From assembly GCF_988242995.1 (NCBI RefSeq), contig NZ_OZ547043.1: a DNA stretch of 64,000 nt; one strand, written 5' to 3'. The notes beneath the pieces were generated by a model. It had not been told where the DNA came from and made no database searches. It was given only the letters and a program-made list of their open reading frames with translations. The position numbers were made by a program, and so were the translations under genes. Numbering within the stretch: position 1 is the first letter of the stretch; each line of letters begins with the position of its first letter. Positions 1,187 to 49,838 of this stretch are shown piece after piece.

Positions 1187-1250
1187 ACGCGTAACACAAT
1201 GAAATAAAAGGATTTATTTCTGGTCACGTCCACACATTGACCACATCGAC

Positions 1251-1587: not shown

Positions 1588-2751
1588 TCACTCATCATCT
1601 TCTGTTTCGTACTCCACATCAGAAAGCCTGACCTCAAGCTCTAAGGACGTCGTGAAGCCGCTATTATTCAGAAAATGTGTCACCTTAGTGATTGTCCAGT
1701 CCTGCTCGTCTATGACGCGCTTAAAGCCTGATACTTTAACCGGTGTTTCCGTGTAAATATCAGCACGACCGGTAGCCAGGCTGATGGAGAACTCCGCAAC
1801 GCCCCGTTGCAGTTTATCCCACTTCGCCTGAGCGGCACGCATGGCCTGTGCTTTCGTGGCATATACCGTGGTCAGGGCAAAAACGTTGTCAGCCTCACCG
1901 GCCATGTATTCACCTTCGCGCGCTTCCGGTACTTTTGGCGCTTTCTTCTGCCTGACCGGTTTTGCTTTCGGGTGCTCCAGTGCGCGCAGGTGTTTTTCTT
2001 TCTTTTTGCGTTTCAGTTTTACCTTCTGCTTTTGCGGCTTCGGGTCTTTGGTGTGTAACCACTTTGCCGTTACGCCGGTATAGGCTCCACGGTCAGCAAT
2101 CGCAAAATGATGGCGGTCGCCGTCGCTGCGGGTGATGGTGACCTGCGGGATTTTTTTACCGCTGGCCGTCACCCCCTGCCCCGCTTTGAGAAACAGCAGT
2201 TTTCCCATTTTTACCGACACCTCACCGCCGTTGCGTTCTGCAAGACGGGTCAGGAATTTCGCATCAGACTCCTGCGACTGGTCGATGTGCGGGATTTTAA
2301 TTCCGGCCAGTGACGGCGCGACACTGGCTTCCAGCTTGTTACGGGAGGCTATCGCCTCAACAATCGCACCGAGCGTGGTGTCATGCCATGAGCCTTCACG
2401 GCGGGAATTGAGCGTCCCGCGAAAATCTGCACTCCGGGCGCGGATGGTGACCACATCCGGTGCGCCCCGGTGTTCAACCTCATCAACGGTAAATTTCCCT
2501 TTGCATACCAGGGCAAAACCTTTCCAGCCGATATACACCGTCAGAACAGCACCACGAACCGGCAGTTCGACCTGCCCGTCGGCATCGTTCAGTTCAATAT
2601 CAAGCTGGTCAGCCTCAAAGCCCCGGTTATCCGTCAGGGTCATGCTCATCAGACGGTCGCTGATATTGCCGGTAATATCCCTGCTGTCGAGCATCAGCAT
2701 GTAATCCGGCGTCAGCGTACTGCCTGCATCAAATGTCAGCGCATCCAGCAT
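1588..2751 (-). CDS. D: Tail protein gpD
   Basis: 387 aa, P2 gpD length and position next to ogr. Confidence 0.9.
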   Translation of the reverse strand: MLDALTFDAGSTLTPDYMLMLDSRDITGNISDRLMSMTLTDNRGFEADQLDIELNDADGQVELPVRGAVLTVYIGWKGFALVCKGKFTVDEVEHRGAPDVVTIRARSADFRGTLNSRREGSWHDTTLGAIVEAIASRNKLEASVAPSLAGIKIPHIDQSQESDAKFLTRLAERNGGEVSVKMGKLLFLKAGQGVTASGKKIPQVTITRSDGDRHHFAIADRGAYTGVTAKWLHTKDPKPQKQKVKLKRKKKEKHLRALEHPKAKPVRQKKAPKVPEAREGEYMAGEADNVFALTTVYATKAQAMRAAQAKWDKLQRGVAEFSISLATGRADIYTETPVKVSGFKRVIDEQDWTITKVTHFLNNSGFTTSLELEVRLSDVEYETEDDE

Positions 2752-3244: not shown

Positions 3245-5692
3245 TTAACCGTCATGCATCATGCTGGCACGGGCGCGCGCACGTTTATCCCGCTCGTATT
3301 TTTCGAGCGCATCCTGTAACTGGCGGTCAAGCTGTGTCCCCGGCGCAGTACCGCCCGTCAGGTTGATGTGATATTCGTTTTTACTCTGGTCCACATAAGA
3401 GCGGCCAGCCAGTGCCGTGACTGGCTGATAAGCCTGATAGCCTGCATAAGAGCTGGTCGCCGGAATATAACCACCGGTGCCATACGTGGCGGCATGAGTT
3501 CTGGCGGCGGTCTGGTCAAGTGTGTCTGACTCTTTGTTGATGACCCCGAGCTTTTCCAGTACCCAGTCAATACCGCTGCGCAGTTTGTTGAACGCATTAA
3601 GCGGCAGCATCAACGCGTCAGCCAGTGCCTGCCCGAACATGACGCCCGTATCACGGCAACGGTTCAGGGTGTCCCGGGTGGCTTTGACCGGGGCAATCAG
3701 GTTTTTAAACCACTGCCACGCGGCCTGTAACTTTTCGCCCAGCCAGTCAAACACCGGCTTAAGTGGCGTGAACAGTTCCCCCACCGGCGCAAATGCCGCT
3801 TTCAGCCCTTCAACCACACCGCCAAAGAATGCGCTGACAGGCTCCCAGTATTTACGGATAAGTAACGCCCCGGCGACAATGGCGGCCACCACGGCCACAA
3901 CCGGCCAGCTAATCGCCCCGATGGCCGTCATAACAGCACTGCCAACCGTCGTGAAGATTGCTCCCATTGCGCCTGCTGCCGCGATGATGGCATTGATGCC
4001 GGTGATAACCGGCCAGGCTACGAGGCCAATGGCACCGATGACACCAATCAGCGCCAGTGCACCACCGACAATGATGCCGATGGTTGACGCCAGTGATTTG
4101 TTTTTCTGTATCCAGCCGTCGAGTTTTAACACATACTTTGTGGCCGTCTGCGTGAGCTTACGCAGTGCGCCTTCCTGCTGGTCAAACAGGTCAGTCCCCA
4201 CCGCCTCATAAGCGGACTGAAACTCCTTAAAGTCACCGCCGAGGTTGTCCTGCATGATATTTACCAGCTCGGCGGTCTTCCCGTCTGAGGCTTTAAACGC
4301 AGCGGTCAGTTTGTCCAGCTTTCCAGTTGAGGCGGCAGTCATCAGCACGGCGGCGGCTGAGCTGGCCTCCTCCCCGAAAATAGTTTTCATGTATTCAGCC
4401 TGCTGGGCAGTACCGAGCCGGTTTTTCTCAAAACTGGCCTGCATTTCTTTCAGAATGGTAAATACTGGTCGAGTATTCCCTTTACTGTCTGAGGTTTTCA
4501 CGCCAAGCTCTTTCAGTGCATCCCATGCTTTTCCCGTCGGTGCCTGCAGGCGGCTTAACACGGCACGGCTTCCCGTCCCCGCCATTGAACCGGTAATTTT
4601 TGCATCATGCAGCGCCCCGACCATTGCGGCGGTTTCTTCAATGCTGACACCAGCATTTTTTGCCACAGGTGCGGCATAGGTCAGCGCATCGCTCATGCCA
4701 TCAAAATCGGCGGCGGTTTTGTTCATCGTCATGGAGAGAACATCCCCGATATGAGCGACCTTATCGTTTGAAAGCTGAAAGGCGGATTTCATCCCCATCA
4801 GCAGGGCGGCGTTTTCTTCCATCGTGCGACGGTTCGCCAACGCCATATTCAGCGTGACCGGCGTTGCCGCCTGAATGGCATCAACATCCCCACCGGCTTT
4901 CGCAATAATAATCTGCGCACCGGCTGCATCATCTGCCGAGGCTGCGGTATTGTCGCCGAGCTGGCGCGCCTGCTTGCGTAGTGCAGCCATTTCGGCGGAG
5001 TCTTTTGCCACACCGAGCACAGCCTGCAATTCTGAGTTTTTCTGCGCAAACTCATAACCGGGCATCAGCAACTTAACTCCGGCCATCGTTCCCGCAGCAG
5101 CAATCCCCACACCGGCAGCGCCCACTGAGGCCATATTTCCGGCCAGTTCCTTTCCGGCCTGATAACGCTGTTTTACTGCGTTAAGTTTTGCCTGTTGTGC
5201 ACTGACACGCGCCAGCGCGTCACGCTGACGGTTAAGCTGTGCGGTGGTTTCACTGATACGGTTTTTCAGTCCCTGCTCATCATGTGCAAGATTGCGGGTA
5301 TTAATTCCCACAGCGGCCAGTTCCCGCTGCTGGCGTTTAATGGAATCTGTCAGGCGGTTATATTTCGCCTGTAAGTCCTCCGCCGCACGCTTTGCGGATT
5401 CCAGCACTTTCGCCTGAGCACGGGTCGGACGTTCAGTGTTTTTAAGCTGTGTGGCAAGGGCTTCGGCTTCCTGCCGTGCCTTTTCAAGTGCATGACCAGT
5501 CACGGCAAGCTGTGCGCTGGTCTTGCGAAATCCCTCAATACGGGATGCGTGACCGTTCAGCTCGCGCAGTGATTTTTGTGTTTCCCGGATATCCCCCGAC
5601 AGCGACTTACTCGCTGTGCGGATGGATTTAAACGGGCGGGATGCCTGGTCAACAGCCCTGAGCAATACCTGTAATTTTACATTGTTACTCAT
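3245..5692 (-). CDS. T: Tail tape-measure protein gpT
   Basis: 815 aa, Ala/Gly-rich coiled and hydrophobic segments typical of tape-measure proteins; P2 T position. Confidence 0.9.
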   Translation of the reverse strand: MSNNVKLQVLLRAVDQASRPFKSIRTASKSLSGDIRETQKSLRELNGHASRIEGFRKTSAQLAVTGHALEKARQEAEALATQLKNTERPTRAQAKVLESAKRAAEDLQAKYNRLTDSIKRQQRELAAVGINTRNLAHDEQGLKNRISETTAQLNRQRDALARVSAQQAKLNAVKQRYQAGKELAGNMASVGAAGVGIAAAGTMAGVKLLMPGYEFAQKNSELQAVLGVAKDSAEMAALRKQARQLGDNTAASADDAAGAQIIIAKAGGDVDAIQAATPVTLNMALANRRTMEENAALLMGMKSAFQLSNDKVAHIGDVLSMTMNKTAADFDGMSDALTYAAPVAKNAGVSIEETAAMVGALHDAKITGSMAGTGSRAVLSRLQAPTGKAWDALKELGVKTSDSKGNTRPVFTILKEMQASFEKNRLGTAQQAEYMKTIFGEEASSAAAVLMTAASTGKLDKLTAAFKASDGKTAELVNIMQDNLGGDFKEFQSAYEAVGTDLFDQQEGALRKLTQTATKYVLKLDGWIQKNKSLASTIGIIVGGALALIGVIGAIGLVAWPVITGINAIIAAAGAMGAIFTTVGSAVMTAIGAISWPVVAVVAAIVAGALLIRKYWEPVSAFFGGVVEGLKAAFAPVGELFTPLKPVFDWLGEKLQAAWQWFKNLIAPVKATRDTLNRCRDTGVMFGQALADALMLPLNAFNKLRSGIDWVLEKLGVINKESDTLDQTAARTHAATYGTGGYIPATSSYAGYQAYQPVTALAGRSYVDQSKNEYHINLTGGTAPGTQLDRQLQDALEKYERDKRARARASMMHDG

Positions 5693-8257: not shown

Positions 8258-8902
8258 ATGATCAAACACACCGCAGCAGAAAGGGAAACCAACACTTCAG
8301 CTAAGCTGAATGAATACCAGTTGAACCTTCTGAAAAGAATTAACAACCTCGCTATTTCCCTGATGCCTGAATTTGAAGACAAAAACCAGGCAATTAATGC
8401 TATCACGCTGGATGATAGTTCACTGATGCAATTGCTCTACACCGTTCAACTCGAACAGAAGACTCGTGTCAATGACTACGAACTACGTAAAGTGCGCCGT
8501 CGTCGCGAAAATCTGGAACGATTTTATCGTGGGCTTCAGGAGTTAGGCGGTACGCTAAAGGTAAATGACGTGGTCGATATTCTTGGAATCACCCGCCAGG
8601 CGATCAACATTCGCGTTAAGAAGAACAAGCTTTTAGCATTCAAGCAGAACGGTGATTTTATTTTCCCGAAATTTCAGTTCACAGATAACGGGCTGATTCC
8701 CGGCTTTGAAGACGTAATGGCGGCATTTGACGAGAATACCCATCCAATGCTGAGGTTGGGTGTGCTGAAATCACCAATAGAGGTTAATAGCGAAGGCCTG
8801 AAAAAGACGCCGATTCAAATCATGCAGGACGGCGCTAAAAATAGTGAACTTAGTCTGGCTATCCGTGCCGCTAAACAGTTCGGAAATCATGTATCCAGTT
8901 AA
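8258..8902 (+). CDS. Cargo protein with HTH and C-terminal DUF2384-like (Xre/ParS/MbcA antitoxin-like) region plus a ~110-aa N-terminal extension of unknown function
   Basis: 214 aa from ATG 8258 with GGAGG RBS; HTH-like DILGITRQAINIRVKK; C-terminal HPMLRLGVLKSPIEVNSEGLKKTPIQIM resembles the toxin-binding domain of RES-Xre antitoxins; ~40% GC versus ~52% in flanking phage genes. Confidence 0.55.
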   Translation: MIKHTAAERETNTSAKLNEYQLNLLKRINNLAISLMPEFEDKNQAINAITLDDSSLMQLLYTVQLEQKTRVNDYELRKVRRRRENLERFYRGLQELGGTLKVNDVVDILGITRQAINIRVKKNKLLAFKQNGDFIFPKFQFTDNGLIPGFEDVMAAFDENTHPMLRLGVLKSPIEVNSEGLKKTPIQIMQDGAKNSELSLAIRAAKQFGNHVSS

Positions 8903-32347: not shown

Positions 32348-33361
32348 ATGGCAATCAAAAAACTCGATGATGGTCGATATGAAGTGGACATCCGCCCTAC
32401 TGGACGTAATGGAAAACGCATCCGTAGGAAGTTTGATAAGAAAAGCGAAGCTGTCGCTTTCGAGAAATACACGTTGTACAACCACCACAATAAAGAATGG
32501 CTATCAAAACCAACAGACAAGCGACGTCTGTCGGAGCTGACACAGATCTGGTGGGATTTAAAGGGTAAACACGAAGAGCATGGGAGATCTAATCTTGGAA
32601 AAATTGAAATCTTCACAAAAATAACGAATGACCCATGCGCATTTCAAATTTCGAAATCGCTTATCAGCCAGTACTGCGCCACCCGAAGAAGTCAGGGTAT
32701 TAAACCTTCGAGTATCAATCGTGATTTAACATGTATTAGCGGCATGTTTACAGCCCTGATTGAAGCGGAGTTATTCTTTGGTGAGCACCCTATCAGAGGG
32801 ACAAAAAGGCTTAAGGAGGAAAAACCAGACACAGGCTATCTCACGCAGGAAGAAATTGCCTTACTGCTTGCTGCTCTTGACGGCGACAACAAAAAGATTG
32901 CGATTCTTTGCCTGAGTACTGGAGCACGTTGGGGAGAAGCAGCTCGTTTGAAAGCAGAAAATATTATCCATAACCGCGTCACGTTTGTTAAAACGAAAAC
33001 AAACAAACCACGCACCGTCCCGATCTCAGAGGCTGTTGCCAAAATGATCGCGGATAACAAACGAGGTTTTTTATTCCCTGATGCTGATTACCCTCGCTTC
33101 AGACGAACAATGAAAGCAATAAAACCGGATTTGCCAATGGGGCAAGCCACACATGCACTAAGGCACAGCTTTGCCACTCATTTCATGATTAATGGAGGAA
33201 GTATTATCACGCTACAACGGATACTAGGTCACACACGGATTGAGCAAACTATGGTTTACGCTCATTTTGCGCCAGAGTACCTTCAGGACGCCATTTCTCT
33301 TAATCCGCTAAGAGGTGGTACTGAGGCTGAGAGTGTCCACACAGTGTCCACAGTAGAGTAA
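32348..33361 (+). CDS. int: Tyrosine integrase
   Basis: 337 aa, P2 Int length; catalytic-region motifs (ARWGE, HALRHSFATH, VYAHF); 80 bp from attR. Confidence 0.9.
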   Translation: MAIKKLDDGRYEVDIRPTGRNGKRIRRKFDKKSEAVAFEKYTLYNHHNKEWLSKPTDKRRLSELTQIWWDLKGKHEEHGRSNLGKIEIFTKITNDPCAFQISKSLISQYCATRRSQGIKPSSINRDLTCISGMFTALIEAELFFGEHPIRGTKRLKEEKPDTGYLTQEEIALLLAALDGDNKKIAILCLSTGARWGEAARLKAENIIHNRVTFVKTKTNKPRTVPISEAVAKMIADNKRGFLFPDADYPRFRRTMKAIKPDLPMGQATHALRHSFATHFMINGGSIITLQRILGHTRIEQTMVYAHFAPEYLQDAISLNPLRGGTEAESVHTVSTVE

Positions 33362-33440: not shown

Positions 33441-33467
33441 AATCTCCCTTACACGGGCTTATTTTTT
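33441..33467. repeat. attR core, 27 bp
   Basis: Exact copy of 1160-1186. Confidence 0.85.
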
Positions 33468-33637
33468 GTGCATAAACCATAGAGACGGATTGATCCCAGG
33501 TGACCGTCTTCCATTGACCACATCGATAGAATCTCCCTTCATAGCACGATGCCTTTCACGTAACGGCATCGTGCTCGCACAGGTTCCGGCTAAGCACAAC
33601 CAGAACGCGCATGTTTGACGCTTACCAAAAAATATTC

Positions 33638-33955
33638 TCACTCTCCACATTTGAATGTCAGACGAGCGACGCCATGTAATCCTGCACCTTCTGTCTTCAG
33701 GTCAACTATCTGCATTTTTTTGCCCTGAGTAACACAGAAATGAGCTGCATCATTTTTTACTATATTTTCTGCACCAGATATTCTGCCCCTGGCTAAAGAA
33801 GCTTCGGCTTCGGTGTAGTATTGGTTATCGAGTTTACGCTGAATATTACTTTTATATGCAAGACCAAATTTACCGATACTTGTCTCATCATTATGTACAG
33901 CACACCCAGACATAAGAAAAACACTAATTAATGATATAGCAGCTATCTTTTTCAT
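33638..33955 (-). CDS. yegR: Small lipoprotein YegR
   Basis: 105 aa from ATG 33955 (GGAAGG RBS); signal peptide plus lipobox (LMSGC); E. coli yegR position before yegS. Confidence 0.6.
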   Translation of the reverse strand: MKKIAAISLISVFLMSGCAVHNDETSIGKFGLAYKSNIQRKLDNQYYTEAEASLARGRISGAENIVKNDAAHFCVTQGKKMQIVDLKTEGAGLHGVARLTFKCGE

Positions 33956-34369
33956 CTTACCTTCCCCCATTAAATACCAACGACACGCTCTGGTGTTAAA
34001 ATATAATAATGGCATGATTATTATAATTGAATAGGATTATAATAAATGTTCTGTACAACATTTCCTACATAAGTAGGAATTACAAACATGAAGCCCTGCC
34101 CAGGTATCCCCATGAGGGCTTTAATATATTTAGAATAAGATAGTGAAGATGCCACTGTTTAGTTGAATATTAGGTATATGCTCTTTTTTGAAATTTACCG
34201 GTGGCTACCGTTAACATTCACTGTCCCCATTGCAAGCTCCTGGTGGTAACCACTGAATCCTCCATACTTGAACTGATTTTTTATCCTCCGACTTTCATCC
34301 TGTTCTGACTCCACCTTTTCTTTTCTGCTCTACACTATCTACAGACCAATCATAAAGGCACATACGATC

Positions 34370-35269
34370 ATGGCAGAATTTCCCGCCAGCTTACTGATTC
34401 TTAATGGCAAAAGTACTGACAATTTACCATTGCGCGAAGCAATTATGCTGTTGCGTGAGGAAGGAATGACGATCCATGTGCGGGTCACCTGGGAGAAAGG
34501 CGATGCCGCACGATATGTAGAGGAGGCCCGGAAGTTGGGCGTCGCAACGGTGATTGCCGGTGGTGGCGATGGCACCATTAATGAAGTTTCTACGGCGTTG
34601 ATTCAGTGTGAGGGGGATGACATACCCGCGCTAGGAATTTTGCCATTAGGAACCGCCAATGATTTTGCCACCAGTGTAAGGATTCCTGAGGCACTGGATA
34701 AGGCGCTGAAACTGGCAATTGCCGGTGACGCCATTGCGATAGATATGGCGCAGGTCAACAAACAAACCTGTTTTATTAATATGGCGACAGGCGGATTTGG
34801 GACGCGTATTACCACAGAAACGCCGGAAAAATTAAAAGCCGCGCTGGGTGGCGTCTCTTACATCATTCATGGCTTAATGCGCATGGATACTCTGCAACCG
34901 GACCGTTGTGAGATCCGCGGTGAAAACTTTCACTGGCAAGGTGACGCCCTGGTCATTGGTATTGGTAACGGGCGTCAGGCCGGTGGCGGTCAGCAATTGT
35001 GCCCGAACGCGTTAATTAACGATGGCTTGCTGCAACTGCGCATTTTTACCGGCGATGAAATTCTTCCGGCTCTCGTATCAACATTAAAATCTGACGAAGA
35101 TAACCCGAATATTATCGAAGGCGCTTCGTCGTGGTTTGATATACAAGCCCCACACGAAATCACTTTTAATCTTGATGGCGAACCGTTGAGCGGACAAAAC
35201 TTTCATATTGAAATACTTCCGGCGGCGTTGCGTTGTCGATTACCACCAGATTGCCCATTGTTGCGTTAA
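34370..35269 (+). CDS. yegS: Lipid kinase YegS (DAGK catalytic domain)
   Basis: 299 aa; GGDGT motif of diacylglycerol-kinase-like fold. Confidence 0.85.
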
Positions 35270-49616: not shown

Positions 49617-49745
49617 AGTTTGCTCCTGCCATAACGTTAAGAAGCAATGACCTGGTGGTCCGTGACTTCCCTACGCTGGCATTATCCAGATCAGGTGATA
49701 CGGGTATTTCTCAGCCTTCACGCAGAAGGGCACCCCGAGTCGTTT
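49617..49745 (-). promoter_or_regulatory. TPP (thi-box) riboswitch in the thiMD leader
   Basis: Minus-strand sequence actcggggtgcccttctgcgtgaaggctgagaaatacccgtatcacctgatctggataatgccagcgtagggaa... matches the remembered E. coli thiM aptamer (CUGAGA thi-box present). Confidence 0.8.
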
Positions 49746-49838
49746 GGTTGCGATGATAAATCGCAGAGGAGGATGGTAATGTCCAGCGCACGCGTTGTAA
49801 ACGAGGAAAAACCGCAGTTTTACAATCGCGTTAATAAA

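Follow-up and report, generated by a model that had tools for sequence, protein, structure and literature searches.

We analyzed a 64,000-nucleotide stretch of DNA, referred to here as the window, whose host sequence is that of the E. coli chromosome and in which a P2-like prophage lies between two exact copies of an attachment core. The genes and features of this prophage and its attachment sites are as follows.

1098-1183, + strand: cyaR (RyeE) sRNA gene (Rfam RF00112, 100.7 bits against a gathering score of 47)
1160-1186: attL core of the present prophage, 27 bp, matching 33441-33467 at 27/27 positions
1185-1218: IHF-site homologue in the ogr-side arm (the "P arm" of the P2 record), positional homologue of the IHF protein_bind feature of AF063097 (L003 626-659)
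1187-33440: Peduovirus (P2-like) prophage, ~32.25 kb between the two exact cores
1222-1249: Int arm-type binding site of the present prophage, identical to the P2 "Int, P arm" protein_bind feature (L003 663-690), ggtcacgtccacacattgaccacatcga
1251-1275, - strand: Rho-independent terminator ending the ogr transcript and the F operon; homologous to the terminator annotated in P2 (L003 695-718)
1288-1506, - strand: ogr, late-gene activator (ORF, translation MFHCPLCQ...)
32348-33361, + strand: int, tyrosine integrase (ORF, 337 aa)
33327-33353: Int arm-type binding site on the int side, with GTGTCCACA present twice; homologous to the P2 "Int, P' arm" feature (L003 487-513)
33441-33467: attR core of the present prophage, an exact core; very probably also the attL core of an ancient remnant (see below)
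34370-35269, + strand: yegS, lipid kinase, chromosomal backbone (ORF; RefSeq annotation)

The terminator loop and 3′ stem of cyaR make up the left part of the att core, and the 27 bp (AATCTCCCTTACACGGGCTTATTTTTT) comprise the last 24 nucleotides of cyaR and three T's. The copy at 1160-1186 is the same as the attP core annotated in P2 (AF063097). The copy at 33441-33467 is the attB that is used in unoccupied E. coli, where it forms the end of cyaR and leads into the flank seen in the window. A variant core and terminator sequence, acacAggc for acacGggc, is carried by the ST131 strain 2019_APHA (L125, about 400-430) and by 2 of 100 IMG/VR loci; it converts a G-U wobble to an A-U pair in the cyaR terminator stem and leaves an att core of 26/27.

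The prophage is ~97% identical to the Peduovirus phages P22H1 and P24C9 and to phage 10W (~79% of 8500-33440 covered), and is oriented such that ogr adjoins the left core copy and int the right copy. Its ogr DNA is 97-99% identical to the ogr of P2-like phages, the stem of the terminator at 1251-1275 reads agcccctc/gaggggct, and the 3′ end of int and the arm downstream of it align with P2 int and attP. yegR and then yegS lie to the right of the second core copy. A TPP riboswitch at 49651-49747 on the - strand (RF00059, 71.2 bits) is unrelated to the findings at the cyaR site.

In AF063097, the ogr side of attP consists of an IHF site that adjoins the core and lies between it and the annotated Int arm-type binding site ggtcacgtccacacattgaccacatcga, a 28-mer that is unchanged in the window. 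The site at 1222-1249 is formed by the direct repeats cGTCCACa and tGACCACa, 11 bp apart. Both match tgTGGaCa, the consensus of P2-type arms, wherein it occurs as direct repeats (PMC3448106). The arm-type motif is also present twice on the int-side arm, at 33327-33353. Within the ogr-side site, positions 1235-1249 form a 15-mer that can be recognized as the distal arm-type repeat with its flanks, because it is identical to sequence inside the Int site annotated in P2. This 15-mer is nearly invariant in functional arms from several genera, and the arm that follows cyaR, including cattgaccacatcga, recurs in P2-like prophages of Citrobacter and Buttiauxella.

An earlier note on this DNA had reported that the same 15-mer, CATTGACCACATCGA, occurs both at 1235-1249 and in the chromosomal flank beyond attR, at 33512-33526. 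This was borne out, with both copies on the + strand, and a search of the window for further copies with two or fewer mismatches yielded none (0.12 expected). The note had also claimed partial similarity upstream of the 15-mer. Pairwise alignment of the two post-core flanks confirms that the similarity extends beyond the 15-mer: with the cores excluded, the local alignment reads GGATT.AT..C.GGT.AC-CGTC..C-CATTGACCACATCGA and has a score of 33, whereas shuffled sequences average 14, peak at 29, and reach 33 in 0 of 2000 cases. When the attR flank was compared with all 140-nucleotide segments of the 64 kb on both strands, the top match was the attL arm (z = 8.8). Over the whole ogr-side arm of the window, 42/68 positions are identical with one 4-nucleotide gap. 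In a multiple alignment with functional arms from P2-like prophages of E. coli, Citrobacter, Buttiauxella, and Enterobacter, the attR flank is colinear with all of them from the first post-core base to the end of the arm-type site. The suggestion that the chromosomal flank holds ogr-proximal P2-like sequence thus stands, and this sequence can now be specified as that of an attachment arm. Judged by these alignments, the resemblance between the attL arm and the attR flank is homology by descent.

We therefore refer to the segment after attR as the relic of an ogr-side arm. The relic begins at the first post-core base (33468), as it also does in unoccupied E. coli sites. Its distal repeat is intact, reading tGACCACa as in P2 and lying within the 15-mer at 33512-33526. 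Its proximal repeat has decayed to cGTCTTCc in every E. coli haplotype seen, with about 4/8 positions matching the consensus, and the relic does not hold two arm-type repeats matching tgTGGaCa about 11 bp apart. The window carries a long form of the relic, in which the IHF-homologous part compares as ggattgatccc versus ggatttatttc and the rest has diverged with a 4-nucleotide gap. Most E. coli relic haplotypes are shorter and are without ~12-17 nucleotides of the IHF part, whereas two long forms, that of the window and another (…gctgtaaatacggattgatccctggtcacc…), occur less often and are nearer to a full-length arm. The spacing from core to repeat is 44 nucleotides in the window, 32 nucleotides in the common form, and 48 nucleotides in the phage.

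The 23 haplotypes found at 75 E. coli loci, which were collected with an anchor lying outside it, all share an unchanged 27-nucleotide block, gtcttccattgaccacatcgatagaat. Among neighboring ungapped columns, 27/138 are variable, which gives P of about 0.04 in a post hoc comparison of genomes that are related; the perfect 15-nucleotide run within a 62%-identical arm has P of about 0.015, likewise post hoc. This conservation of the distal repeat may leave room for constraint or gene conversion, and luck may also account for it. Separately, a few haplotypes have a phage-like ACGCGT directly after the core in place of the usual ATGCAT. This palindrome was seen in L126 (about 1487-1500) and in 2 of 77 IMG/VR relic haplotypes, and it could be a short conversion tract or the result of two transitions that keep the palindrome.

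The flank is a property of the species rather than of the strain. Among 5426 complete E. coli genomes, the 1-kb flank after attR is matched in 5423, and the interval 33495-33580 is present in 5358, once per genome. A naive junction of cyaR with yegS was found in 0 of the 5426. FDAARGOS_1077 was considered as a near-naive genome and was rejected; it carries the relic with an internal deletion of yegR. In AST217, where the site is unoccupied, cyaR and the core are followed directly by atgcataagccgtatcctggtcaccgtcttccattgaccacatcgatagaat.... The comparison with K-12 that the earlier note had proposed gives the same picture, in that cyaR and its core are followed there by a full arm, ogrK, and the D' fragment; a partial core (acacgggcttattttttt) comes next, and beyond this ogrK-D' remnant the flank is the one seen in the window. 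A recent, strain-specific event is rejected by the presence of the relic in unoccupied sites, in K-12, and in 5358/5426 genomes, and the older occupation predates the diversification of E. coli. The evidence supports the serial occupation of this site that the note had envisaged, with the difference that the earlier occupation is ancient and common to the species, not recent in the strain. The relic is still eroding in places: in 30EVA2 (L124, 1-2500), IS1 and a truncated prophage replace it up to about window position 34140, and in FDAARGOS_1077 (L237, 795-810), most of yegR is deleted.

Related genomes reveal what the site looks like without the flank. A scan for cyaR with one genome per species provided 120 loci from other Enterobacterales species, in most of which yegS starts within a few hundred nucleotides of the cyaR terminator loop; in most Enterobacteriaceae, the distance from cyaR to yegS is about 90-170 nucleotides. 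None of these 120 loci has yegR between cyaR and yegS. The naive site is present in a cryptic Escherichia lineage (L089, CP089930; a separate species representative whose source name is "MULTISPECIES [Escherichia]"), which has the same yegS leader and a YegS that is 94% identical to that of the window. In CP089930, an E. coli-type core is followed by gtacca and then by cgactttcatcctgttctgac…ATG of yegS. The naive yegS leader also directly follows the attR of three IMG/VR P2-like prophages (L233, L234, and L236). As a separate observation, truncated arm-like sequences lie directly after cyaR in L052 ("E. coli" SCPM-O-B-8794, a separate species representative), L035, and L017, which suggests that scars of this kind are common at the cyaR site.

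Segment 33468-34282 is thus absent at the same site in related genomes, and in E. coli it forms an insertion of ~815 bp exactly between cyaR and the yegS leader, so that the similarity described in the note covers just its left tip. Its components and the adjoining leader are listed below.

33468-33529: ogr-side attP arm relic (alignments and shuffle tests)
33530-33539: half core AATCTCCCTT, equal to the left 10 nucleotides of the core, preceded by "tag" and followed by non-core sequence
33543-33575: perfect 11-bp inverted repeat, agcacgatgcc N11 ggcatcgtgct, downstream of yegR
33638-33955, - strand: yegR, 105-aa predicted lipoprotein (YegR annotation in RefSeq genomes)
34196-34255: faint, core-proximal int-side arm relic (MAFFT colinearity with the int-side arms of P2 and the present prophage)
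34256-34282: degenerate second core, putative ancient attR, AATCCTCCATACTTGAACTGATTTTTT, 19/27 identical
34283-34369, + strand: ancestral yegS leader (atcctc cgactttcatcctgttctgac...), aligning with the post-cyaR sequence of L089, L233, L234, L236, and E. albertii

On the + strand, the order is therefore ogr-side arm relic, half core, hairpin, yegR, AT-rich DNA, int-side arm trace, and degenerate core. A core direct repeat bounds the segment, with 27/27 identity at 33441-33467 and 19/27 at 34256-34282, and both relic ends are about 62-70% identical to their phage counterparts. With both strands considered, the degenerate core ranks third among the core matches of the window, behind only the exact copies, and has P = 3.7e-6 at a fixed position. 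Because ~0.5 chance matches are expected in 128 kb, the weight of a 19/27 match comes from its position, and this core sits at the very place where, in naive genomes and a remnant of E. albertii, the yegS leader adjoins the core. The int-side arm together with the degenerate core has a local score of 27, which is reached by 2 of 2000 shuffles, and the best match in a scan of the window with this arm and core is the present attR (z = 5.5). Note that the int-side arm relic taken alone is not significant, in that 46 of 2000 shuffles reach its score and it is not the top match of the window; its most credible part is 34227-34255.

No P2 protein-gene remnants were detected within the segment by tblastn of all prophage ORFs or by sensitive blastn, which returned noise only, and no similarity to ogr or D was found in 33468-34282. 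For this reason, the P2-like identity of the segment rests on its two ends. GC content is 30-37% at 33700-34200, compared with about 45-54% in yegS. The inverted repeat at 33543-33575 is not followed by a T-run on either strand.

The half core at 33530-33539 is the commonest form in the collected E. coli flank sequences, and its presence means that more than one integration and one deletion are needed to account for the segment. The half core breaks off (…CCCTT / non-core) within a base of the D'-core junction of K-12 and of a breakpoint in the remnant L193. In K-12 (L001 2455-2490; window 1783-1830), the junction of D' with the attR core reads …gagaactctgc / tacacgggc; in L193, it reads …gggcgggt / acacgggc; and in the relic, the half core ends AATCTCCCTT / cat. 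It is also at this breakpoint that the match to cyaR begins in the core of a second group of P2-like phages (CCCTTACACGGG…). Three independent junctions at one core position suggest, as far as sequence can indicate, illegitimate Int-mediated recombination at the cleavage site. The second group is itself a separate observation: its members at cyaR (L130, L143, L147, L155, L159, and L199, all from IMG/VR) have P2-type arm repeats with a different left half-core, and their attR matches cyaR only from CCCTTACACGGGCTTATTTTTT (22 nucleotides), preceded by …aaacg.

yegR lies on the minus strand, which is the orientation of ogr in a phage. Homologues of YegR are almost all from E. coli and Shigella, and a comparison with Pfam returned no significant family. 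The few distant homologues are found in an Enterobacter island rich in IS elements and in unrelated chromosomal context, and these contexts led us to reject them as genes of P2-like prophages. Citrobacter and Enterobacter prophages at cyaR (L039, L036, L097, and L009) carry low-GC cargo ORFs between the ogr-side arm and ogr, an example being a 201-aa protein in L039, and their arrangement would mark the arm-ogr interval as a moron slot at that end of P2-like genomes. By analogy, it is plausible that yegR is phage cargo from the slot just inside the arm. It could instead have arrived separately from the phage.

We consider it highly likely that the attR flank is the decayed remnant of an ancient P2-like prophage and that the present Peduovirus integrated into the intact attL core of this remnant. 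On the lineage to E. coli, at a time when cyaR still abutted the yegS leader, a P2-like phage would have integrated via Int into the cyaR terminator. Nearly the whole of this prophage would later have been lost, leaving ~815 bp. Its left core, being the cyaR terminator, would have stayed perfect and for this reason could still serve as attB, whereas the right core would have been free to decay to its current 19/27. The left arm would have decayed unevenly, such that the IHF region was mutated or deleted and the proximal repeat was ruined while the distal repeat and its flanks stayed intact. Finally, the present Peduovirus would have recombined with the intact left core. Integration at that core would put the phage's own arm after attL (1187-1249) and the old arm after attR (33468-33529), and would thereby produce the similarity that is observed. 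We infer this order of events, as well as the arrival of yegR as cargo and the preservation of the left core by selection on cyaR; the intact left core would also correspond to the classical site locI.

Two other accounts of the similarity would do without an older prophage. A chance repeat of unrelated sequences might be entertained for an exact match of only 15 nucleotides, but 0.12 copies are expected and a third copy is absent from the window, the extended alignment beats 2000/2000 shuffles and every other segment of the window, the two sequences are placed alike with respect to the core, and there is a second, degenerate core where one is predicted. On the strength of its uniqueness, the shuffles, and the window scan, we reject this explanation and assign it a negligible probability. 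Alternatively, the direction could be reversed, with the phage arm derived from the chromosome after an ancestor of P2 took up the E. coli flank by aberrant excision. Both sequences adjoin the same core, and temperate phages are known to gain adjacent host DNA through such excision. However, the arm is a functional Int-binding site in P2 and its motif recurs on the other arm; it is conserved in P2-like phages of other genera, including those whose match starts at the arm and not at the core; and naive cyaR-yegS sites in many genera are without it. Capture of a host flank by the phage is accordingly rejected, on the grounds of an annotated Int site that is conserved across genera and absent at naive sites, and it strikes us as very improbable.

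A different possibility accepts that the arm-like flank began as a relic and holds that it is now maintained, either because it still binds Int and aids use of the site or because it is refreshed by gene conversion from prophage arms. The invariant 27-nucleotide block in 23 haplotypes (P about 0.04, post hoc), the perfect 15-nucleotide run in a 62%-identical arm (P about 0.015), and the phage-like ACGCGT after the core in a few haplotypes all point this way, but these are post hoc tests on related genomes, which do not count as independent. Moreover, the proximal repeat is degenerate in every haplotype, the IHF-homologous region is deleted in most, and the spacing between core and repeat varies, which together make a working arm unlikely; P2-like prophages are also found at naive sites that have no relic (L233, L234, and L236). 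We thus regard maintenance of the flank as unlikely. A more specific proposal is that the distal repeat might recruit a P2-type integrase beside attB, and so favor the cyaR site or bias excision, or might be kept phage-like by gene conversion; this seems to us rather doubtful. If it were true, P2 in E. coli would prefer an attB that is a half-attP left by an earlier phage, instead of a simple core.

A decayed remnant of an ancient prophage, which we favor, would change how the site is read. What is taken for an "empty" P2 site at cyaR in E. coli would not be virgin chromosome but the attL end left by an ancient P2-like element, and the locus would be a concrete case, open to dating, of one att core being used serially, this core staying perfect through its role as an sRNA terminator. 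It would also place yegR, a K-12 gene, inside an att-bounded, low-GC insertion that is specific to E. coli and Shigella, and the origin of yegR is probably horizontal and phage-borne. A natural attB pair becomes available for comparing P2 integration, namely relic-bearing E. coli and the naive cryptic Escherichia lineage.

There are consequences for annotation as well. The records ON470606.1 and AY639599.1 and about 100 IMG/VR UViGs (L127-L226) run ~440 nucleotides or more past attR, and yegR is labeled a phage gene because prophage predictions and phage records extend past attR into the relic. The presence of yegR in living phages was considered and rejected; the only matches in phage databases, vB_EcoM-720R8 and "Phage TP," include the chromosomal flank or a K-12-like remnant. 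yegR also matches the PHROG family phrog_21109 (E = 2e-72), and this match is probably an artefact of the same kind. Annotators should therefore end P2-like prophages at the 27-bp core.

The K-12 remnant at cyaR has been listed as "ogr-D'" (PMC3032704, Table 2). The relic was not recognized as an element in that study, because strain Crooks was scored there as having none at cyaR (PMC3032704, Table 2), and no prior description of the relic was found in the literature searched, the locI sequence paper lying outside it. The ogrK and D' fragment (yegZ) of K-12 resembles the relic in its insertion site and phage family. It has kept attL (core, full ogr-side arm, and ogr) and has lost the rest in a deletion with its end point inside the attR core. 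It is young and strain-specific, retains ogr, and is about 97-99% identical to living phages, whereas the relic is older, has ends that are about 62-70% identical and no recognizable phage gene, and is present in ~99% of E. coli. K-12 carries both, with the relic to the right of the ogrK-D' remnant.

The remnant in E. albertii NBRC 107761 (L008) is also like the relic, in that a P2-like attL arm follows cyaR and attR abuts the same yegS leader. It is nevertheless an independent event: it spans 3.4 kb, is interrupted by an IS, has better-preserved ends and the core variant acgcaggc, and contains no yegR. Its attL arm is cut by IS-like sequence after the first arm repeat (4930-5360), and its int-side arm and core are well preserved (about 8300-8420).

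Objects of this type are familiar: a prophage has decayed to a scar whose att repeat is degenerate, and a new element has been added at the att copy that is intact. Tandem accretion, in which a new element enters the intact att copy of a decayed resident, is established for CIMEs of ICEs and for island arrays at tRNA genes. The cyaR site shares the arrangement of CIME-type arrays (att, element, att, remnant, degenerate att) and differs from them in its target, an sRNA terminator instead of a tRNA gene, and in its elements, which belong to the P2 type of phage. The remnant is not expected to be mobilizable, because its right core is too decayed (19/27). As in the lambda model of a simple attB, the 27-bp core alone is common to all used sites, the naive ones included. 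In contrast to the textbook attB, which has no arm-type repeat, the cyaR attB of E. coli has a leftover one on one side.
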